From Gemmatimonadales bacterium (GTDB lineage: Bacteria; Gemmatimonadota; Gemmatimonadetes; Gemmatimonadales; GWC2-71-9), in assembly GCA_035310725.1 (NCBI GenBank), contig DATGDT010000257.1, positions 1,216 to 65,215 on the forward strand: a DNA stretch of 64,000 nucleotides. Reading direction: 5' to 3'. Below the pieces are notes generated by a model. It searched no databases. It saw only the letters and a program-made list of their open reading frames with translations, and was not told the origin of the DNA. The translations under genes and the position numbers were made by a program. Positions within the stretch are counted from its first letter, which is position 1, and every line of letters starts with the position of its first letter. Below are positions 13,090 through 50,444 of the stretch, piece after piece.

Positions 13090-14655
13090 ATGCGTCACTT
13101 GAGAATCGTCCTGCCGGCCCTCGCACTCGCGTGCGGCGGTCACAGGTCGCAACCGGCCGTCGCCCCGACGCCGACTGCCGTACCCACCGCGCCGGTCGGA
13201 GTCGCCTCCATCACGGCGGACGGCGTTCGCGGGCGCATCTACCGCATCGCCGATGACTCGATGCGGGGTCGGGCGACGCCATCGCCGGAGCTCGACAAGA
13301 TGGCCGCCTACGTCGCTACGGAGTTCCGCCGCTTCGGGCTCAGGCCGGGCGGCGATAGCGGCGGGTACCTGCAGCGCTATCCCCTGGAGGTCTATCAGGC
13401 GGTTCCCGAGAGCGCCGCGGTGTGGGCGACTGGAGTGGCACCGGTGCGCTGGTCGCTCGGCCAGGACATGAAGTTCGTGCAGGGCCAGCCGGTGGCCGAC
13501 CGTGTGGCGGAGGGGGTGGTGCTCGTCACCGGGACGCCACAATCGGGCGGCGCACTCGATTCCGCCACGGTCACGGGTAAGATCGCCGTCGTCCCCATCG
13601 GGACGTCCGGGTTCGCGGCAGCGACGGCCCTGCTCCCACGTCATCCGGCGGCGATTGTCGCGGTGTTCGACGTGCCGGACGCCGCCTGGCTCCAGTTTCC
13701 GAGTCAGACGGGGAAGGTGGTGCAAAACCCGAACGAGGGCGGCGGGCTCGTGATCCCGCCCATCCTCGTGGTTCGCGACGCCAGCGCGCGCGCCTGGCTC
13801 GCGCAGGCGGGCGTGAACATCGATTCGGCCCGCGCCGCGACCACCGGACCATTGGCCGCCCGTGCCCTTCCCGGCGTGACGATCCATGTCGATCTGCCGC
13901 GGCGCCTGCTGCAGCGGACTACCGCGCCGAACGTCGTCGGCATCCTCGAGGGCTCTGACCCGGTCCTCAAGCACCAGTACGTGATCTTCAGCGGCCACAT
14001 GGATCATATCGGCACACCCCCCGACGGCGAGGGCTGCGCGCCCAGGGGTGCCGACTCCATCTGCAACGGAGCCGATGACGACGGCACGGGGTCGGTGGCG
14101 GTATTGGAGCTCGCGCAGGCGTTCGCCTCGGCGCCAGTCCGAACCAAGCGCTCTCTCGTCTTCCTGACCGTCAGCGGGGAGGAACGAGGACTCTGGGGGA
14201 GCGCGTATTTCGCCGACCACGCCACCGTGCCGATCGACAGCATCGTGGCGGATCTCAACAGCGACATGGTGGGCCGCTCCGACACGCTCCGCGACTCGAT
14301 CGTCGCGATCGGCCGCGAGCATTCCGACCTGGGCACGACGCTCGACCGGGTCGCGGGGGCGCATCCCGAACTGCGCATGACGCCGGTGGGGGACCGCTGG
14401 CCGCAGGAACAGCTTTTCTTCCGCTCGGATCACTACAACTTCGCGAGGAAGGGCATCCCGATCCTCTTTTTCACCAGCGGACTGCACCCGGACTACCACC
14501 AGGTCAGCGACACGCCCGACCGGATCGACACGGAGAAGGAAGCGCGTTTCGTCCGGCTGGAGTACTACCTGGGCGAGACGGTGGCCAACGCGGCGCAGAA
14601 ACCGCAGTGGAATCCGGACAGTTACCAGAAGATCGTCCAGGGGGGCGGGCACTGA
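13090..14655 (+). CDS. M28-family aminopeptidase lipoprotein with PA domain
   Basis: ORF 521 aa. Lipobox LALACGG and metal-ligand region FSGHMDHIG...NGADDDGTGSVAVLELAQ...SGEERGLWGSAYF. Confidence 0.85.
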   Translation: MRHLRIVLPALALACGGHRSQPAVAPTPTAVPTAPVGVASITADGVRGRIYRIADDSMRGRATPSPELDKMAAYVATEFRRFGLRPGGDSGGYLQRYPLEVYQAVPESAAVWATGVAPVRWSLGQDMKFVQGQPVADRVAEGVVLVTGTPQSGGALDSATVTGKIAVVPIGTSGFAAATALLPRHPAAIVAVFDVPDAAWLQFPSQTGKVVQNPNEGGGLVIPPILVVRDASARAWLAQAGVNIDSARAATTGPLAARALPGVTIHVDLPRRLLQRTTAPNVVGILEGSDPVLKHQYVIFSGHMDHIGTPPDGEGCAPRGADSICNGADDDGTGSVAVLELAQAFASAPVRTKRSLVFLTVSGEERGLWGSAYFADHATVPIDSIVADLNSDMVGRSDTLRDSIVAIGREHSDLGTTLDRVAGAHPELRMTPVGDRWPQEQLFFRSDHYNFARKGIPILFFTSGLHPDYHQVSDTPDRIDTEKEARFVRLEYYLGETVANAAQKPQWNPDSYQKIVQGGGH

Positions 14656-14671: not shown

Positions 14672-15098
14672 GTGACACTCGACCTCTACGCCCGGCACAA
14701 GTCCGAGTACATCGCCCCCCGGATCGCCGGCCTTCTTGACGATCGGGGCCGCCAGGTACCTGACTGTGGCGGGACGCGGTGACCCCAATGGACCCGCGTT
14801 CGGCGCCGCAGTCGGGGCGCTGTACGGCATCGCGTATACGATCAAGATGGCCAAGAAGGCCGGCGGCCGCACCCTGGAGGCCCGAGTACGGTTGGAAACG
14901 CAGCGCGAGGGCCGGTGCGTGCAGATGCTGCACCGCGGTCCCTACCGGGCGGAGCACGCCACCATCACCGCGATGGTGGCGTTCGCCCGCGGCCGGGGAC
15001 TGCGCCCACGGGGCCGGCACCACGAGATCTACCTCTCCGACCCGCGGCGCGTCGCTCCAGCGAAACTGCGCACCATTCTCCGGCAACCCGTGCGTTAG
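14672..15098 (+). pseudogene. Decayed GyrI-like (SOUL/small-molecule-binding) gene with a frameshift in a C6 run plus an apparent internal deletion
   Basis: Frame A runs GTG 14672 to TGA 14780-14782 (VTLDLYARHKSEYIAPR...). Frame B is ORF 14736-15098 (..TIGAARYLTVAGRGDPNGPAFGAAVGALYGIAYTIKMAKKAGG...HHEIYLSDPRRVAPAKLRTILRQPV). Removing one C from cccccc (14715-14720) joins them. Confidence 0.6.
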
Positions 15099-16036
15099 GC
15101 GGCTTCGATCCCGAGTACGCCGGCGTTCGTCTTCGAGCGCTTGAGCATGGCCAGCAGGTTCTCCATGGCCTGCGTGGGAGGCAGTCCCACCAGACGGCGG
15201 CGCAGCTCCTGCCGCGCGGTCACCACCGCCGGTGGGGCGAGCAGTTCCTCCCGCCGGGTCCCACTCGCGGCGATATCCACGGCAGGGTAGATGCGCCGGT
15301 CCGCCATCTCGCGGGTGAGGCGCAGTTCGGCGTTGCCCGTCCCCTTGAACTCCTCGAAGATCACGTCGTCCATGCGGCTCTCGGTTTCGACGAGCGCGGT
15401 CGCGATGACGGTGAGCGATCCCCCGTCGGGCACGGCGCGGGCCGACCCGAACAGGGCCTTGGGTTTGGCCATCGCGTTCGCATCGAGCCCACCCGACATC
15501 GTTCGCCCGCTCGAGCGGCCCGCCGTGTTGTGCGAGCGCGCCAGGCGAGTGAGTGAGTCGAGGACGATCACGACGTCGCGTCCGAGCTCGACCTGGCGCC
15601 GAGCGTGCTCGAACACCATGTCGGCCACCGCCACATGCCGCTCGTGCGGCAGATCGAAGCTGGATGCGATGACCTCACCGCGGCCCCAATCGATCATCTC
15701 GCTCACTTCTTCGGGCCGCTCATCGACCAGCAGGATGAGCAGCTCCACCTGCGGATGATTCAGGGCGACGCCTTCCGCCACCGCCTGCAGCACCGTCGTC
15801 TTCCCCGCCTTCGGCGGCGACACGATGAGGGCACGCTGGCCGAACCCGAACGGGCAGACCAGATCGATGACGCGCTGAATGTCTCCGGTCCGCTGGCTCT
15901 GCTGGCTCACCGTCTCCAGACGCAGCGGCCGTGATGGATGGACCGCGCCGAGCGCGGAGAACTCGGGACGCTCACCCATCCGCTCCGGAGCGAGGCCGTT
16001 CACGCTGACGACCCGCCCACCCTCGAGCGTCACCAC
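15095..16036 (-). CDS. rho: Transcription termination factor Rho, ATPase core only (N-terminal domain missing or unclear start)
   Basis: ORF 313 aa with Walker A SPPKAGKTTVLQ, LLVDERPEEV, VLDSLTRLARS and SLTVIATALVETESRMDDVIFEEFKGTGNAEL. The frame stays open upstream to TAG at 16193-16195 but contains no ATG/GTG/TTG there. Confidence 0.85.
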   Translation of the reverse strand: MVTLEGGRVVSVNGLAPERMGERPEFSALGAVHPSRPLRLETVSQQSQRTGDIQRVIDLVCPFGFGQRALIVSPPKAGKTTVLQAVAEGVALNHPQVELLILLVDERPEEVSEMIDWGRGEVIASSFDLPHERHVAVADMVFEHARRQVELGRDVVIVLDSLTRLARSHNTAGRSSGRTMSGGLDANAMAKPKALFGSARAVPDGGSLTVIATALVETESRMDDVIFEEFKGTGNAELRLTREMADRRIYPAVDIAASGTRREELLAPPAVVTARQELRRRLVGLPPTQAMENLLAMLKRSKTNAGVLGIEAA

Positions 16037-16184
16037 GTCGCCGCGGCGCAGGCCCGGGAGACGAACCCCCGGGTCGCCGCGGGCGGGCAGGTAGCTGTTG
16101 GCCGCGAACCGCAGGGCGCCGCCCTTGGGAGCGGGATCGAACCAGCCGGTGATTGGTGGCAGGGGGTGACCTCGCTGGAAATAT

Positions 16185-16266
16185 GCTATCGGCTATCAGC
16201 TATCGGCAGGGTGCGTAGCCCTGGGCCACCCGTCAGCCGAGAGGCCGATAGCCGATAGCCGATAGC
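16185..16266. repeat. Heptamer-array palindrome: (GCTATCG)(GCTATCA)(GCTATCG)GC, 36-nt spacer, GC(CGATAGC)x3
   Basis: Left arm is 16185-16207 and right arm is 16244-16266. The arms are 22/23 complementary, with one A/C mismatch at 16198/16253. Confidence 0.95.
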
Positions 16267-16282
16267 TTATCTTCCCTCGCAC

Positions 16283-18082
16283 ATGCGCCAAGCCAACATC
16301 CGCAACTTCTGCATCGTCGCCCATATCGACCACGGGAAGTCCACCCTCGCCGACCGCCTGATCGAGCTCACGGGCACGCTCGATAAGCGCCTGATGCGCG
16401 AGCAGGTGCTCGACACCATGGATCTGGAGCGCGAGCGGGGCATCACGATCAAGCTGAACGCGGTCCGGATGGGCTACCACGCGCGCGACGGGCAGGTCTA
16501 CGAGCTCAACCTGATCGACACTCCCGGGCACGTCGACTTCACCTACGAAGTCTCGCGCTCCCTGGCGGCCTGCGAGGGAGCGATCCTCGTCGTGGACGCC
16601 TCGCAGGGCATCCAGGCGCAGACGGTGTCCAACCTGTTCCTGGCGCTGGACGCCGGCCTCGAGATCATCCCCGTGTTGAACAAGATCGATCTCCCGGGCG
16701 CGGAGCCCGACAAGCGGGCGCAGGAGATACACGACCTGATCGGAGCCAAGCCGGAAGAGATCCTGCGCATTTCCGCCAAAGACGGGACCGGAGTCCCCGA
16801 AGTCCTCGAGGCCGTCGTCCAGCGCGTCCCGCATCCCCGGGGGGAGTCCGGGGCGCCACTGCGCGCGCTGATCTTCGATTCCTACTACGACCGCTACCGC
16901 GGCGCGATCCCCAGCATCCGCGTAGTCGATGGCCAGCTGCGGCCCGGGATGAAGATCGCGTTCGGCGCCCACAAGGACGATCTCTACGAGGTCGACGAAG
17001 TGGGCTACCTGCAGCTCGGCCACAAGCCGACGGAGCAGCTGGAGGCGGGCGAGGTCGGCTACTTCATCGCCAACATCCGCGGGGTGCGGGAAACCCGCCC
17101 GGGCGACACCGTGCTCGATGCCGAGCATCGCGACGCGCCACTGCTCCTCGGCTATCGGGACATTCAGTCGATGGTGTTCGCGGGACTCTATCCCACGAAC
17201 GCCGAGCAGTACGAAGAGCTGCGCGACGCCCTCGCCAAGCTCCAGATGAACGACGCCTCGCTGCACTACGAGCCGGAAACCTCGGTGGCGCTGGGGTTCG
17301 GGTTCCGCTGCGGATTTCTCGGCCTGCTCCACATGGAGATCGTGCGCGAGCGGCTGGAGCGCGAGTTCGACCTCGACCTGATCTCCACGGTGCCCAACGT
17401 GGAGTATCACGTCTACAAGACCGACGGTACGAAGGAGATCGTGGAGAATCCGAGCGCGATGCCGCACGGCACGGGTGTGGAGCGCGTGGAAGAGCCGTAC
17501 GTGAAGGCGCGGATCCTGACGCCGGCCGAATACATCGGCGCCATCATGAAGCTCGGCCAGGAGCGCCGCGGCGTGTACCAGGGGATGCACTACGTGGACC
17601 CGACGCGCGTCGATTTCACCTTCGAATTCCCGCTGGCCGAGATCATCCTCGATTTCTACGACAAACTGAAGACCGTGTCGCGCGGCTACGCCTCGCTCGA
17701 CTACGAGTTCCTGGGCTACCGGCCGAGCGAGCTCATCAAGCTCGACCTGCTGCTCAATGGCGAGGCCGTGGACGCGTTCAGCGTCATCATCCACCGCGAC
17801 AAGGCCTATGACTGGGGTCGCAAGATCGCCGAGAAGCTGAAGGAGCTGATCCCTCGACAGCTGTTCGAAGTGATCATCCAGGCCGCCATCGGCAGTAAGG
17901 TGATCGCCCGCGAGTCCATCCGCCCGCTGCGCAAGAACGTGCTCGCCAAGTGCTACGGCGGCGATGTGACGCGCAAGCGCAAGCTCCTGGAGAAGCAGAA
18001 AGAAGGCAAGAAGCGGATGAAGCAGGTCGGCACCGTGGAGATTCCGCAGGAGGCATTCCTGGCGGTCCTGCAGGTCGACTGA
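16283..18082 (+). CDS. lepA: Elongation factor 4
   Basis: ORF 599 aa: [33 protein letters not shown], and a C-terminal LepA_C region ([25 protein letters not shown]). Confidence 0.97.
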
Positions 18083-24202: not shown

Positions 24203-25056
24203 CCCTGACGGTGCGCGAGGCCCTGCTCGCCTTTCGGCGCGCGCCGCTCCTGTCGGCGCTCTCGGTCACCACGATCGCGTTCTCGCTGTTCGTGCTCGGG
24301 CTGTTCGGGCTCGTCGCCGTGAACCTCCGCCAGGCGCTGCGCGGGGTGGCGGAGCGGGTGGAGATCGTCGCGTACGTCCTTCCCGGCACGCAGATCGAGA
24401 CGGTGACGCTGGCCGAGCAGGACATCGAGGCGTTTCCCGAAGTGCTGTCTGCCGACTACGTGCCCGAGGATAGCGCGCTGGCGCGCGCCCGCCGCGAGCT
24501 GGTGGAATTCCGCGACCTGTTGCGCGAGATGGAGCGCAATCCACTGCCCTCTTCCATCGAGGTCAAGCTCAAACCGGGCTACCAGGACGCGGCCCACGTC
24601 AATGCCGTCGCCGAGCGGCTGCGGAGCTTCAGCTTCGTGGACGACGTGCGCTACGGTCGCGATTGGGTGGAGAAGCTGGATCGGCTGCGCGGGCTCGCCG
24701 CCGCCGTCGGCGTGGTGGTCGGCGCGGCCTTCGCCGTCGTCGCCGTGATCATCATCGGCACCACGATCCGGATGGCCGTGCTGCAGCGCAGCCGGGAGAT
24801 CGCGATCATGCGGCTCGTGGGCGCGACCGACGGGTTCATTCGCCGCCCGTTCCTGCTCCAGGGCGCCCTCAAGGGGCTGCTCGGGGGGCTGGTCGCCGTC
24901 GGCTTGTCCTACGTCGCCTACGTGTTCATCAACCGGTTCTTGATCGCTTCTTCCTTCTTCACGGCGCTACAGGCGCTGGCCGTCGTGGTGTTCGGGACGG
25001 TCATCGGGCTGATGGGGAGTCTCCTCAGCGTCGGGCGACATTTGAGACGAGTATGA
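24199..25056 (+). CDS. ftsX: Cell-division permease-like protein FtsX
   Basis: ORF 285 aa. GTGA overlap with ftsE, four TM segments and an FtsX extracellular-domain pattern. Confidence 0.9.
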   Translation: MTLTVREALLAFRRAPLLSALSVTTIAFSLFVLGLFGLVAVNLRQALRGVAERVEIVAYVLPGTQIETVTLAEQDIEAFPEVLSADYVPEDSALARARRELVEFRDLLREMERNPLPSSIEVKLKPGYQDAAHVNAVAERLRSFSFVDDVRYGRDWVEKLDRLRGLAAAVGVVVGAAFAVVAVIIIGTTIRMAVLQRSREIAIMRLVGATDGFIRRPFLLQGALKGLLGGLVAVGLSYVAYVFINRFLIASSFFTALQALAVVVFGTVIGLMGSLLSVGRHLRRV

Positions 25057-26279
25057 ACCGGGGACGGGGGACGAGGGACGAGGGACGGGCCTGGATCATC
25101 GCGGCCATCGCGATAGTCCTCGTCACGCTTCCCTCGTCCCCCATCCCTCTCTTCGCCCAGCGCCCGACCCTCGAGCAGCAGATGCGCGACAATCAGCAGC
25201 GCCTGGAGGGCATCCGCCGAGAGCGGACCCAGGCGCAGCAGGATCTGGAGCGGCTGCGCGCCCAGGTCCACAGCCTCGCCGACGAGCTGACCAACCTCGA
25301 GCATCAAAAAGAGACCACGAACCGCATCGTGAACGAGCTGGACCGGCAGATCCTCCAGCTGGGCGACGCGATCGACCGCATCACGGTGGACCTGGTGCTG
25401 GCCCAGGACGCGCTGGACGAGAAGCGCGCTGTGGCGGAGCGGCGGCTCGTCGACATCTACAAGCGCGGCCCGTTGTACGCCTACCAGGTGCTGTTCGCGG
25501 CCGAGAGTTTCGGCGACCTCCTGTCGCGGTACAAGTACCTCTACCTGATCAGCCGGCAGGACCGCCAGCTCGCCAACGAGATGAACCGGCTGCGGGATCG
25601 CATCGCACGGGAGCGGCGCGGTCTGGTGGAAGCGCGCGACGCGCTGGAGCGGCGCCGCACCGAGCGGTCCGAAGAGCTGCAGCATTTCGTCGATCTCGCC
25701 TCGCAGCGGCAACGCCGGCTGCGCGAGACCCGCCGTGACGTGGAGCGGGTCCAGGAGCGGCTCACCGCCACCGACGCCGAGGAGCGGCGGGTCGCCAACG
25801 CCATCGCCACGCTCGAGCGGGCGCGCCGCGAGGCCGAGGCCCGGGGCGCCGTGCCGACGACCGGCGCGATCACGAGCGGGAGTCTGGGCTCGCTCGACTG
25901 GCCGGTGACCGGCCGCGTGGTCTACGACTTTGGCCCCGCCGCGGGGCCCGACAACACGCGCATCACCTGGCATGGCATCGGTATCGCCGCGGACGAGGGC
26001 ACGGCCGTGAAGGCGGTCGCGCCCGGGACGGTCGCCCTGGTGGGGCCCCTCGGCACTTACCTCACGACGGTGATCGTGGATCACGGCGGCGGCTTCTACA
26101 CGATCTACGCCTCGCTCAACGACGCGGCGGTCTCCAAGGGCGACCGCGTGGTCCGCGGACAGCTGCTCGGTCACGTCGGCGGCGGCACGACCGAGCAGGG
26201 CCCGCACCTGCACTTCGAGATCCGGGGCCCGGGGCAGATTGCGCTCGATCCGCTGAATTGGCTGAAACCGAAACCTTAA
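25053..26279 (+). CDS. EnvC-like murein hydrolase activator (coiled coil + M23/LytM domain)
   Basis: Real part of ORF 24663-26279. ATG 25053 forms an ATGA overlap with ftsX. It has a signal-anchor WIIAAIAIVLVTL, a long coiled coil, and a C-terminal M23 region (GIGIAADEGTAVKAVAPGTV...VIVDHGGGFYTIYASL...GPHLHFEIR). Confidence 0.85.
   Translation: MNRGRGTRDEGRAWIIAAIAIVLVTLPSSPIPLFAQRPTLEQQMRDNQQRLEGIRRERTQAQQDLERLRAQVHSLADELTNLEHQKETTNRIVNELDRQILQLGDAIDRITVDLVLAQDALDEKRAVAERRLVDIYKRGPLYAYQVLFAAESFGDLLSRYKYLYLISRQDRQLANEMNRLRDRIARERRGLVEARDALERRRTERSEELQHFVDLASQRQRRLRETRRDVERVQERLTATDAEERRVANAIATLERARREAEARGAVPTTGAITSGSLGSLDWPVTGRVVYDFGPAAGPDNTRITWHGIGIAADEGTAVKAVAPGTVALVGPLGTYLTTVIVDHGGGFYTIYASLNDAAVSKGDRVVRGQLLGHVGGGTTEQGPHLHFEIRGPGQIALDPLNWLKPKP
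25060..25144. repeat. Heptamer array (GGGGACG)x2(AGGGACG)x2 with a degenerate inverted partner, inside the envC 5' end
   Basis: Direct units span 25060-25087. acgggggacgaggg (25064-25077) is 13/14 complementary to ccctcgtcccccat (25131-25144). An inner palindrome atcgcg/cgcgat lies at 25098-25114. Confidence 0.85.
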
Positions 26280-27224
26280 ATGCGTCGAGCGAAGGCGTCG
26301 AGCGAAGGCGTCGAGCAGCGGCGTCGAGCGAGAACGTATTCGCTCGACGGTTCTGCTCGACGATTTCGCTCGACGTTTGTGCTCGACGCCTTTCTGTTGT
26401 CGTGCCTCGCCTGTGCCGCCCCGACGAACCGCCTGGAAGTGGCCGGCACCGTCGAGATCCGTGACATCGGCATCGCTCCACTCGCCGCCGGCCGGGTCGT
26501 ACGCCTGCTGAAGGACGAAGGCGATTCGGTACGACGCGGGGACACCATCGCGGTGCTCGAGCAGCCCGGCCTCCCGGCGCTCATCGGCCAGCGGCAGGCC
26601 CAGGCCCAGGCGGCACAGCGGCGCACGGCGGAGGTCCGTGCGGCGGTCGCCGACAGCACGCGGGCGGCGAACGATCTCGCTCGCGCGGGCTCCCTGCGCG
26701 AGCAGGGCATCATGTCGGCGCAACAGTACGACGCGCTGGTGACCGCCGCCGCGGCGGCCACGGCCCGGCTCCAGGCGGTGCACGCGGCCGCGAGCGAGTC
26801 GCGCGCCGCCGCCGCGGGACTCGCGGCCACCGAGGCGATCCGCGACGAGCTCGTGCTGCTCGCTCCGGCGGACGGCGTCATCCTCACGCGCTATCTCGAG
26901 GCGGGCGAGGCCGCGAACGTCGGCGTGCCGGTCGTGTCGCTCGGCGTCGTGGCACAACCCTGGATCCGCGCGTACGTCGGTGAGCCGTACATCGCGCGGG
27001 TGCACCTTGGCCAGACGGTGACGATTCGCGCCGACGGTCTGGCGACGCCCGTCAGCGGACGCATCGTCGACATCGCGACGCGCGCCGAGTTCACGCCGCG
27101 CGCCGCCCTCACCGACCGCGAGCGCGCCGATCTCGTCTTCGCCATCAAGGTGGGATTCGACGATCCGGCCGGGCGTCTCAAGGCCGGCCTGCCCGTGACG
27201 CTCGAGCTGCCGCTCACGCCGTGA
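26280..27224 (+). CDS. HlyD/YbhG-family membrane-fusion (periplasmic adaptor) protein of the ABC-2 exporter
   Basis: ORF 314 aa. Resembles E. coli YbhG (biotinyl-lipoyl-like GRVVRLLKDEGDSVRRGDTIAVL; C-terminal RAEFTPRAALTDRERADLVFAIKV). Start is uncertain: ATG 26280 or in-frame GTG 26379 (LDAFLLSCLACAAP lipobox-like). Confidence 0.8.
   Translation: MRRAKASSEGVEQRRRARTYSLDGSARRFRSTFVLDAFLLSCLACAAPTNRLEVAGTVEIRDIGIAPLAAGRVVRLLKDEGDSVRRGDTIAVLEQPGLPALIGQRQAQAQAAQRRTAEVRAAVADSTRAANDLARAGSLREQGIMSAQQYDALVTAAAAATARLQAVHAAASESRAAAAGLAATEAIRDELVLLAPADGVILTRYLEAGEAANVGVPVVSLGVVAQPWIRAYVGEPYIARVHLGQTVTIRADGLATPVSGRIVDIATRAEFTPRAALTDRERADLVFAIKVGFDDPAGRLKAGLPVTLELPLTP
26282..26390. repeat. 109-nt symmetric array: four 13-nt-period direct units (core CGTCGAGC) followed by four inverted units (core GCTCGACG)
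   Basis: Direct cores start at 26283, 26296, 26309 and 26322. Inverted cores start at 26342, 26355, 26368 and 26381. All four core pairs share one symmetry axis (position sums 52671). The first two units are identical (gcgtcgagcgaag). Confidence 0.95.
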
Positions 27225-29071: not shown

Positions 29072-29156
29072 GGGAGTGGGGAGTGGGGAGTGGGGAGTGG
29101 TACTCGGCGGAGCGAAGACGGAGTTCCGCCACCGTCGGGTACCACTCCCCACTCCC
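29072..29156. repeat. Heptamer-array palindrome: (GGGAGTG)x4 GTAC, 35-nt spacer, GTAC C(ACTCCCC)(ACTCCC)
   Basis: Direct units span 29072-29099. An 18-bp perfect stem pairs gggagtggggagtggtac (29086-29103) with gtaccactccccactccc (29139-29156). An inner ggcgga/tccgcc pairing sits in the spacer. Confidence 0.95.
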
Positions 29157-49560: not shown

Positions 49561-50444
49561 CGCGCCGCCAGGCCGACCTCGCGCTGATCTCCGCCTGCCT
49601 GCTCTGGGGAGTCAGCTTCGTCGTCGTGAAGCTCGCGCTCGAGGACGCCACGCCGCTGGCCTTCGCCGCGGTGCGCTTCGCGATCGGCGCCCTGCTCCTC
49701 GCGCCGTTCGCCCGGCTGCGCCAGCCCTTCACCGGTGCCGAGGTGGGAGCCGGCGCCCTGCTCGCGGGTCTGCTTGGAATCGGGTTTCTCGCCCAGACCG
49801 CCGGCCTGGTGTGGACGACGCCCTCCCGCTCCGCGTTCATCGTCGCCATCTCGTCGGTGCTCGCACCGGCCATGGCGGCCCTGGCCCTGCGCGAGCGCCC
49901 CGCCTGGCCGCTGGTCACGGCGGTGCTCCTCGCCGCATTGGGCACCTACTGGCTGACCGATCCCGAGGCGGGCGGGCTGAATCGTGGGGACATGCTCACG
50001 CTCGTCACGGCCGTGCTGTTCGGGGCCCAGATCGTGGCGACCACCGCCCTGTCCCGCCGCTTCGACCCGTTTCGCCTCGTGTGGATGCAGATCGCCGGAA
50101 CCGCGGTCCTGGGCGCCGTCGGGGCTGCCCTGCTCGAGCGGCCCGTGATCCACTGGACGACCACGTTCGTCTGGGCGCTCGCCTACACCACTGTCGGCCC
50201 GACCGTGGTCGCGTTGCTGCTGCAGATGGTGTCACAGCGGCACATGTCATCGGCACGGGCGGCGCTGCTCTTCTGCTTCGAGACGCTGTTCGCCGCGGGG
50301 ACGTCGTGGATGGTTTTGGGCGAGCACCTCTCGGCACAACAGTGGTTGGGTGGAGGTCTGATTCTCGGCGGGCTGATGCTGGCAGAACTGAAGGCGTCGT
50401 CGGCTATCGGCTATCAGCCATCGGCAGAGCGCGATTCGGGTTGA
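49557..50444 (+). CDS. EamA/DMT-family transporter
   Basis: Part of ORF 49002-50444. GTG 49557 forms a GTGA overlap with uvrA. It has 10 TM segments and two EamA repeats. The last ~15 codons (SSAIGYQPSAERDSG) and the stop are encoded by the GCTATCG repeat copy. Confidence 0.8.
   Translation: MTRRQADLALISACLLWGVSFVVVKLALEDATPLAFAAVRFAIGALLLAPFARLRQPFTGAEVGAGALLAGLLGIGFLAQTAGLVWTTPSRSAFIVAISSVLAPAMAALALRERPAWPLVTAVLLAALGTYWLTDPEAGGLNRGDMLTLVTAVLFGAQIVATTALSRRFDPFRLVWMQIAGTAVLGAVGAALLERPVIHWTTTFVWALAYTTVGPTVVALLLQMVSQRHMSSARAALLFCFETLFAAGTSWMVLGEHLSAQQWLGGGLILGGLMLAELKASSAIGYQPSAERDSG
50403..50433. repeat. Second copy of the GCTATCG heptamer element (left arm and start of spacer)
   Basis: gctatcg gctatca gccatcg gcagagcgcg versus 16185-16215 gctatcg gctatca gctatcg gcagggtgcg gives 28/31 identity. 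A degenerate right-arm unit, ggcgata, starts at 50461, 35 nt after the left arm (36 nt at locus 1). Confidence 0.85.

Follow-up and report, generated by a model that had tools for sequence, protein, structure and literature searches.

Why does a palindrome built from tandem heptamers fill most of the gap between two divergently transcribed housekeeping genes, rho and lepA, and does it act on either of them? The question is raised by a stretch of 64,000 nucleotides from a Gemmatimonadales bacterium (NCBI GenBank assembly GCA_035310725.1, contig DATGDT010000257.1, positions 1,216 to 65,215 of the forward strand), which is called the window below and to which positions refer unless another record is named. 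An earlier note, made from the letters of this DNA without database searches, had described the palindrome, its coordinates and its setting between divergent rho and lepA, and direct reading together with a repeat finder bears this description out. Here we compare the element with its counterparts at the same site in related lineages, with similar arrays in the window and in metagenomes, and with repeats known from other bacteria. The explanation that we prefer, with a confidence somewhat short of even, is that the element is a locus-resident, self-renewing heptamer-repeat palindrome, which lies in the shared upstream region of two divergent and apparently near-leaderless promoters and acts, if at all, through its structure.

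Architecture of the element

The palindrome is 90 nt long (16181-16270, assigned to no strand) and consists of two 27-nt arms, 16181-16207 and 16244-16270, which are complementary at 25 of 27 positions (93%) and lie 36 nt apart. Both arms are called as period-7 arrays by Tandem Repeats Finder, with three GCTATCG-type heptamers in each. Read on the plus strand, the left arm starts with ATAT and continues with the left array (16185-16207: GCTATCG, GCTATCA, GCTATCG and a closing GC). It is followed by the spacer of 36 nt (16208-16243, no strand), then by the right array (16244-16266: GC and three copies of CGATAGC, the perfect inverse of the left unit) and finally by TTAT. Folded as RNA, the plus strand of the element reaches -57.5 kcal/mol (z = -6.0) and the minus strand -65 kcal/mol (z = -6.5), and in both cases none of 200 dinucleotide-preserving shuffles was as good; the DNA fold of the element has z = -6.8 against shuffles. 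Period-7 arrays of at least 20 nt occur six times in the window, against a mean of 1.2 in dinucleotide-preserving shuffles. The bare GCTATCG heptamer is not enriched in the window (8 found, 6.6 expected), and six of the eight occurrences fall in the rho-lepA arms or in a third array at 50403. Since single heptamers are not enriched, only the tandem arrangement is unusual.

The earlier note had foreseen that the element could be unique to one assembly. An independent NCBI record, L081 (GCA_050263815.1), is 99.97% identical to the window over 6.9 kb and carries the identical element; an assembly artefact is therefore ruled out, both by this record and by the orthologues found in NCBI, ENA and JGI assemblies. 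Several other candidates were rejected as well. An intrinsic terminator does not fit an element that has no T-run, gave no match in the terminator scan and lies upstream of both genes. A known structured RNA is not indicated either: in the Rfam search of the window only tRNA-Asn reached the gathering score, and the matches to the element itself are microRNA-hairpin noise (18-35 bits against cut-offs of 68-100). A transposable element of the miniature inverted-repeat kind or another mobile palindrome was dismissed because there is no flanking target-site duplication and the spacer is not common to the copy at 50403 or to the orthologues. The GCTATCG unit contains no G-tract, so the rho-lepA element itself has no G-quadruplex potential; the four G-tracts that confer such potential are present in two sister elements described below (B and D) and in the orthologue of lineage L214.

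Comparison of orthologous gaps

The orthologous divergent gaps were reached through Rho homologues, and the arrays in them were read in the lepA sense. A GTDB search through lepA gave at least five Gemmatimonadota loci, and none among the matches listed had rho adjoining lepA. An array with a self-complementary partner is present in the rho-lepA gap of 9 of 10 related lineages, with two to six units and spacers of 0-41 nt, and across these lineages the unit drifts from GCTATCG to GCTGTCG, GTCGTCG, GGGGTCA and AGACGTC. The window and L081 have three GCTATCG-type units on the left, a spacer of 36 nt and three CGATAGC units on the right. The window's units are found on both sides in L090 (spacer of ~11 nt) and, with variants, in L088/89 (19 nt). 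In L082 six units (GCGGTCG, GCTGTCG and others) are separated by ~40 nt from one CGACAGC-type unit and three copies of CGATGGC, while L083 and L084-86 have five GCTGTCG/GCCATCG units, a spacer of ~41 nt and four CGATAGC-like units. The left array of L087 is made of GTTGTCG/GTCGTCA and faces two CGACGAC units across ~37 nt; L211/212 have GCCGTCA and GCTATCA, 13 nt, and then TGATAGC and TGATGGC; L214/215 have four GGGGTCA/GGGATCA units, ~27 nt and a matching C-rich inverse. Lineage L216 has three copies of AGACGTC, an array that is itself self-complementary, with no spacer and no right array. The gap of L213 is ~60 nt long and contains no array.

DNA folding covered eight of the nine array-bearing orthologous gaps (all but L216) in addition to the window. 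All nine folded as one long hairpin with z between -2.5 and -8; the array-free gap of L213 had z = 0. The flanking rho and lepA genes are ~75-85% identical in DNA between the lineages, and the spacers cannot be aligned. Unit, copy number and spacer have thus turned over while the element itself stayed where it was through substantial divergence, as a long-lived resident of this locus. The number of units is identical between independent assemblies of one lineage (L084/85/86, L088/89, L211/212 and L214/215), and fast phase variation was rejected for this reason.

The pairing of the arms was assessed by a direct count of the outer 21 pairs; a covariation count on a MAFFT alignment was dropped on account of the variable unit number and a register shift of 1 nt. 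Watson-Crick pairs number 20 of 21 in the window, 19 in L090, 18 in L088, 16 in L087, 15 in L082 (with 5 further wobble pairs), 15 in L083 and 14 in L084, and 11 in L214 in this register, with more if a bulge is allowed. When L087 is compared with the clade whose units follow GCNNTCG, C.G pairs have become T.A and A.T pairs have become G.C in each unit of both arms. In L214 (GGGGTCA) and L216 the whole unit is a different one. Both arms have changed together between clades, which implies that complementarity is renewed over long times, be it by selection or mechanistically. The rho sense is favored by wobble pairs and fold energies in the window, L090 and L088, and the lepA sense in L082 and L084. 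The bias is inconsistent between lineages, and a strand-specific RNA structure, which wobble asymmetry would indicate, was therefore rejected.

Gene starts and promoter-like boxes

The plus-strand gene, lepA (elongation factor 4, 16283-18082), is recognized by the Pfam domains GTP_EFTU and LepA_C, and its product is 74-78% identical to LepA of Gemmatimonadota/Gemmatimonadales metagenome-assembled genomes (MAGs); a look-up for proteins that match it exactly gave none. From the end of the right array at 16266 to the lepA ATG at 16283 there are 16 nt, exactly the distance that had been noted earlier. The minus-strand protein passes the NCBIfam model NF006886 with 396 bits against a cut-off of 315, and the homologue alignment shows that Gemmatimonadales Rho is a short form of ~354 aa with the N-terminus MPPITGWFDP. 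The codon at the conserved Met position of the window's Rho is CTG (16162-16160), and the Shine-Dalgarno-like GAGG, recognized by lineage comparison, stands 7 nt upstream of it (16170-16173, minus strand). The same position holds CTG in 9 of 10 orthologous lineages and GTG in L214; other Gemmatimonadales Rho proteins have ATG or GTG there. GAGG is present at this spacing in 7 of 10 lineages and the weaker AAGG/AGGA in 2; eight of the nine CTG lineages were counted as having such a purine-rich motif, 7-8 nt before the CTG, and L214 has no Shine-Dalgarno-like motif before its GTG. The rho frame has no ATG, GTG or TTG in the interval from the upstream TAG to the internal GTG that is annotated at 16036. 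Because of the conserved Met position, the GAGG spacing, the lineage pattern and the lack of another start codon, rho probably begins at the CTG and not at the internal GTG, and would then encode the short form of 355 aa (15095-16162, minus strand), in agreement with NF006886, the homologue alignment and the codon table. The NCBI model of Rho (313 aa, GTG at 16036) leaves out ~40 conserved N-terminal residues.

With the CTG start the rho-lepA gap measures 120 nt, of which 90 nt are palindrome. Only 18 nt on the rho side and 12 nt on the lepA side lie outside, so the control regions of both genes must overlap the element, as the earlier note had argued. It was also correct that the left arm contains an in-frame TAG upstream of the Rho frame: the CTA at 16193-16195 is this stop on the minus strand, 11 codons before the Rho start, and forms part of a TGA-TAG tandem (16193-16198, minus strand) that is made by the GCTATCA/GCTATCG units. 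Three copies of CGATAGC put TAG into all three frames of the reading strand, and that is why the rho frame closes here. The closure is incidental, however, contrary to what had been suggested: orthologues with CGACAGC or CGACGAC units carry no stops and their rho frame stays open. A three-frame stop cassette was thus rejected, and the stops are regarded as incidental. JGI gene calls extend Rho through such open arrays, and the N-termini 'RQPTADSR' and 'LSAISYRR' in the proteins P0002-P0005 are translated arrays. For annotation this means that the arrays mislead gene callers, which give a Rho of 313 aa in NCBI and an over-extended one in JGI.

Two promoter-like boxes flank the palindrome. On the plus strand the -10-like box TTATCTT (16267-16273) stands 9 nt before the lepA ATG, and its promoter role is suggested by the conserved TATATT-type box of the relatives. 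A TATATT/TTATCTT box occurs 8-10 nt before the lepA ATG in all relatives examined, across Gemmatimonadota, also in those without the palindrome or without adjoining rho (L001, L002, L003 and L213). The stretch concerned lies at 9990-10003 in L001, 9988-10003 in L002, 2343-2359 in L003, 1285-1302 in L216 and 16267-16285 in the window. There is no Shine-Dalgarno motif between the conserved box and the lepA ATG. These data suggest that the box is a -10 element and that the lepA mRNA is near-leaderless. On the minus strand the box ATATTT (16179-16184) faces rho and abuts the left arm; orthologue comparison points to a similar function for it. A minus-strand box of the TATCTT/ATATTT type is found at the rho side in most orthologues, ahead of GAGG-N7-CTG; L213 lacks it, and L216 is unclear in this respect. 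The palindrome occupies the space between the two outward-facing boxes, and each of its arms consequently lies where the -35 or upstream region of one promoter would be.

In L003, a Gemmatimonadales MAG, a direct 9-mer array (GGCGGTCAA, 2285-2335) stands directly upstream of the lepA -10-like box in place of the palindrome. The same MAG has heptamer arrays of AGTGGGA and AGTGAGA, placed right beside the start codons of genes on the minus strand, and an 8-mer array; together with the 9-mer array these lie at 488-526, 1238-1269, 1340-1390 and 2285-2335.

Related arrays

The architecture recurs within the window. Sister elements had been proposed at 25060, 26282 and 29072, and all of them are present and form long hairpins when folded. 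Within 64 kb the architecture is shared by no fewer than three unrelated heptamer units and a 13-mer. The family has no uniform position: one member lies in a promoter gap, two are intercistronic and two are in coding DNA. Element B (25060-25147, plus strand) consists of four GGGGACG units and a degenerate inverse and lies in the signal-peptide coding part of an envC-like gene. It begins 7 nt after the ATG of this M23 peptidase gene, which overlaps the ftsX stop (25053-25160). Dozens of EnvC orthologues (64-90% identity) start with 'M[KN]RGRG[TK]G[DE]GGRV...TLPSSPxPLPAQRP', and this N-terminal pattern ('GRGTGDGGR...LPSSPVPLP') is what array and inverse give when translated cyclically. A counterpart of element B at the DNA level, with the unit GGGAAGA, is present in L216 (10001-10110). 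To judge from these comparisons, members of the whole order have retained element B at the orthologous place in coding DNA, an independent parallel to the persistence at rho-lepA. The element may form a hairpin for translational coupling, or a G-quadruplex.

Element C (26282-26392, plus strand) is built of four copies of a 13-mer (GCGTCGAGCGAAG) and their inverse at the 5' end of an HlyD-family gene, and folds with -88.6 kcal/mol (z = -9.3). It is absent at the syntenic locus of L216, whose HlyD-family gene encodes an ordinary lipoprotein signal. In the window this gene may in truth begin at the in-frame GTG at 26379. Element D (29072-29156, plus strand) has four GGGAGTG units and their inverse and lies between the stop of an ABC-2 permease gene and the ATG of pcm (29176). 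In L216, a more distant relative, the stop of the ABC-2 permease gene is directly followed by a canonical terminator with a GC stem and a T-run (13943-13990), ahead of a convergent gene.

Two further arrays of the window are unpaired. A (CGTCCCC)n/(GGGGACG)n array at 2619-2646 is an in-frame insertion in the minus-strand gene pdxA; its product 'WGRGTGDEGRA' sits in the N-terminal part of PdxA. The only further copy of the rho-lepA arm within the window is at 50403-50427 (plus strand): it is 24/25 identical to the left arm, and the match extends to the GCTATCA variant and the trailing GCAG. Without an inverted partner, this copy lies at the 3' end of an EamA-family open reading frame (ORF), with tRNA-Asn ~90 nt further on.

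GCTATCG arrays of at least three units were found on more than 120 metagenome contigs with a GC content of 0.44-0.73 and reach up to 15 units; an enrichment over other units is not claimed. An inverted partner within 150 nt was present at only 10 of 80 such loci. In 419 kb, the contigs with GCTATCG arrays carry another 76 heptamer arrays, which comprise 55 different units and are often adjacent to each other. Compound arrays were also seen, in which CGATAGC is often directly followed by another heptamer such as GGTCGTC, GGGGAGT or CTGCCAT (L092, L118, L123, L125, L135 and L156). In a Nitrospinota MAG (L016, 11110-11181) a GTCATTA array is directly followed by its inverse (TAATGAC/CAATGAC), thus the array-plus-inverse arrangement occurs in a low-GC lineage too.

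Discussion

On our preferred reading, the element in the rho-lepA gap is no sequence-specific operator, and neither a terminator nor a stop for the reading frame; it is dispensable for the expression of rho and lepA as such. What persists at the site is symmetry, and the explanation that we prefer accounts for this by self-renewal. Replication slippage would homogenize the units within each arm. The arms would stay complementary because the quasi-palindrome undergoes intrastrand template switching, or because pairing is selected for, so that unit, copy number and spacer would be free to drift. In E. coli, intrastrand template switching is known to 'correct' quasi-palindromes (PMC7202029). If the element acts on the two genes, it would do so via a hairpin, a cruciform or an altered duplex geometry in the shared upstream region. 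Negative supercoiling between the divergent units could lead to extrusion, which in turn could occlude or insulate both promoters.

Several points weigh against this explanation. The same genes in the same arrangement are found without the element in L213, thus any function is non-essential. Within the GCNNTCG clade there are no both-sided (compensatory) changes among the 21 pairs, the pairing decays from 20/21 to 14/21, and an arm pairs no worse with that of another lineage than with its own partner; to go by these sequences, the pattern fits common descent with slow decay, for which no selection is needed. The sigma-70 consensus scan of the region gave no promoter match, and the palindrome could be transcribed as part of the rho leader. 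Extrusion of a cruciform with a 36-nt loop is, moreover, kinetically unfavourable. In Xanthomonas, where comparable arrays are abundant, no regulatory role was found for them, and they are under-represented between divergent genes (PMC4692102).

One would argue from the loss in L213, which left the gene arrangement unchanged, and from the lack of compensatory evolution within the close clade that the element is a neutral or selfish by-product: slippage makes arrays, template switching inverts copies, and both persist where they are tolerated, without function and with occasional loss. Arrays of many units are indeed scattered elsewhere (within pdxA, for example, and at the EamA ORF's 3' end), the metagenome contigs are rich in further arrays of other units, and most GCTATCG arrays there have no inverted partner. 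Findings on other bacteria fit as well, with no function found for the Xanthomonas arrays (PMC4692102) and slippage proposed for the excess of heptamers (Mrazek et al., 2007). However, nine of ten lineages keep a self-complementary array at the exact site in spite of saturated spacers and a compact genome, element B is kept in coding DNA of EnvC orthologues down to 64% identity, and independent assemblies of one lineage agree in copy number. We consider a mere by-product somewhat doubtful for these reasons. RNA folds as stable as those of the element (z about -6, at -57 to -65 kcal/mol) could also belong to a transcribed 5'-leader hairpin of rho, or of lepA, which would affect mRNA stability, translation or Rho autoregulation; the transcript would then have to start beyond the element. 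Rho leaders are autoregulatory in E. coli, the Shine-Dalgarno-like GAGG means that rho needs some leader, the sister elements B, C and D, being internal to an operon, are certain to be transcribed, and in L213 the only rho -10-like box overlaps the lepA -10 box, which would give a leader of 35-40 nt. Against such a leader stand the inconsistent strand bias (three lineages in the rho sense, two in the lepA sense), the conserved -10-like boxes that face outwards from both ends of the element, the lepA box, which at 8-10 nt before the ATG implies an mRNA that is near-leaderless and has no room for the element, and the lack of an Rfam match beyond generic hairpin noise. On balance, this makes a leader hairpin unlikely.

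The earlier note had compared the element with the heptad operators that are bound by ribbon-helix-helix proteins such as omega. In this case a dimeric or oligomeric protein, of that type or of the IHF/HU type, would bind both arms and co-regulate rho and lepA. It is true that the arms lie symmetrically over both putative -35 regions, that the unit core G..RTCR is kept in most lineages and that a second, near-identical array exists at 50403. Moreover, deletion of heptamer repeats in Nostoc alters the behaviour of the recO promoter according to a preprint (bioRxiv 10.1101/2022.06.06.494920), and paired arrays of Geobacter were proposed by their authors to be sites of global regulators (PMC2700814). 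The analogy nevertheless fails on the unit, which is not conserved: it is replaced at the same site by GGGGTCA in L214 and by AGACGTC in L216, and several unrelated units share the architecture within the genome. Single heptads are not enriched, and a spacer of 0-41 nt would change the relative geometry of the bound proteins. No candidate heptad-binding protein was identified, with no linked repressor gene examined. A heptad operator is thus very improbable.

A more far-reaching version of the explanation that we prefer can be put forward, although it is doubtful. The heptad-array palindromes of Gemmatimonadales would be selected structural switches, whose sequence turns over during a very long residence at particular loci. 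In the rho-lepA gap, the palindrome would be a supercoiling-sensitive cruciform that couples or insulates the two back-to-back, near-leaderless promoters, and the one right behind the envC AUG would be an RNA hairpin that enforces translational coupling from ftsX to envC. The conserved 'code' would then be symmetry and 7-nt periodicity, not sequence. The locus offers a clean comparative series in this respect: the same housekeeping genes flank the site, nine lineages have differing 'dialects' of the array and one has none. Whether symmetry matters can therefore be tested directly.

Relation to known repeats

The earlier note knew of no such symmetric arrays in GC-rich diderms, and this was wrong, since both Xanthomonas and Geobacter metallireducens have them. 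In many prokaryotes no long simple-sequence repeats are more over-represented than heptamers, an excess for which polymerase slippage was proposed (Mrazek et al., 2007, as cited in later work). Xanthomonas has 183-186 GGGAATC arrays per genome, ~90% of them intergenic, and 70-75 convergent inverted array pairs per genome with a potential to form stem-loops or cruciforms; the arrays are kept between the same genes in two species with varying length and sequence (Rehm et al., 2015, PMC4692102). The likeness to the element between rho and lepA is considerable: tandem 7-nt units, typically three to four copies in Xanthomonas, a GC-rich Gram-negative genome, and close convergent arrays on opposite strands in intergenic DNA near gene ends (here in a 120-nt gap). 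In contrast to GCTATCG, the Xanthomonas unit is G-rich and forms G-quadruplexes. Xanthomonas also has essentially one unit family, whereas this genome has several, and only 7-8% of its arrays lie between divergent genes, as the rho-lepA element does. Geobacter metallireducens has paired sites on opposite strands, with three to five tandem units of 7-9 nt and variable spacing, which were named 'global regulator sites' of classes 1-3, have the heptamer MTYCTGA or the 8-9-mer TCTCCGTS[Y] as units and were read by the authors as binding sites of the IHF/HU type (Aklujkar et al., 2009, PMC2700814). Opposite-strand pairs of tandem short units, variable spacing (0-41 nt in the orthologues here) and intergenic and intercistronic placement are common to both. 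The Geobacter sites, however, come in dozens of BLAST-alignable copies per class and genome, and belong to a different phylum with different units.

The remaining systems are less similar. The direct repeats of the heptamer TAACTGA lie within a few nt of start codons and inside 5' untranslated regions, and BOGUAY has 169 direct heptamer sets compared with one indirect set (MacGregor, 2015, PMC4679880). Together with the short tandemly repeated repetitive (STRR) sequences of cyanobacteria and the recF/recO repeats of Nostoc, they resemble the present arrays in contiguous heptamers of 2-6 or more copies, placement near starts or promoters and several unit families per genome. Unlike the paired rho-lepA arrays, they are mostly direct arrays without an inverted partner, in low-GC hosts. 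They are suspected of a regulatory role. The omega heptads of inc18 plasmids such as pSM19035 have the consensus WATCACW and are contiguous and plasmid-borne, with a cognate repressor gene. They share with the rho-lepA arrays contiguous 7-bp units, direct or inverted, upstream of promoters, but their consensus is fixed and they have no long spacer, whereas the rho-lepA units vary between orthologues and the spacer is 36 nt. Repetitive extragenic palindromic (REP) sequences, bacterial interspersed mosaic elements and REP doublets forming hairpins are likewise extragenic and multi-copy, with inverted arms and a spacer that give a hairpin. Their arms, however, are single imperfect palindromes of 20-40 nt and not tandem arrays, and their sequence is common genome-wide and tied to the REP-associated tyrosine transposase, whereas elements of the rho-lepA type differ in spacer and units between loci. 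Hence the architecture is one that has already been described, GC-rich diderms included, and it belongs to a functionally unexplained kind. What is new here is the phylum, the unit that is not G-rich, the comparative series at one locus and the example in a coding region.

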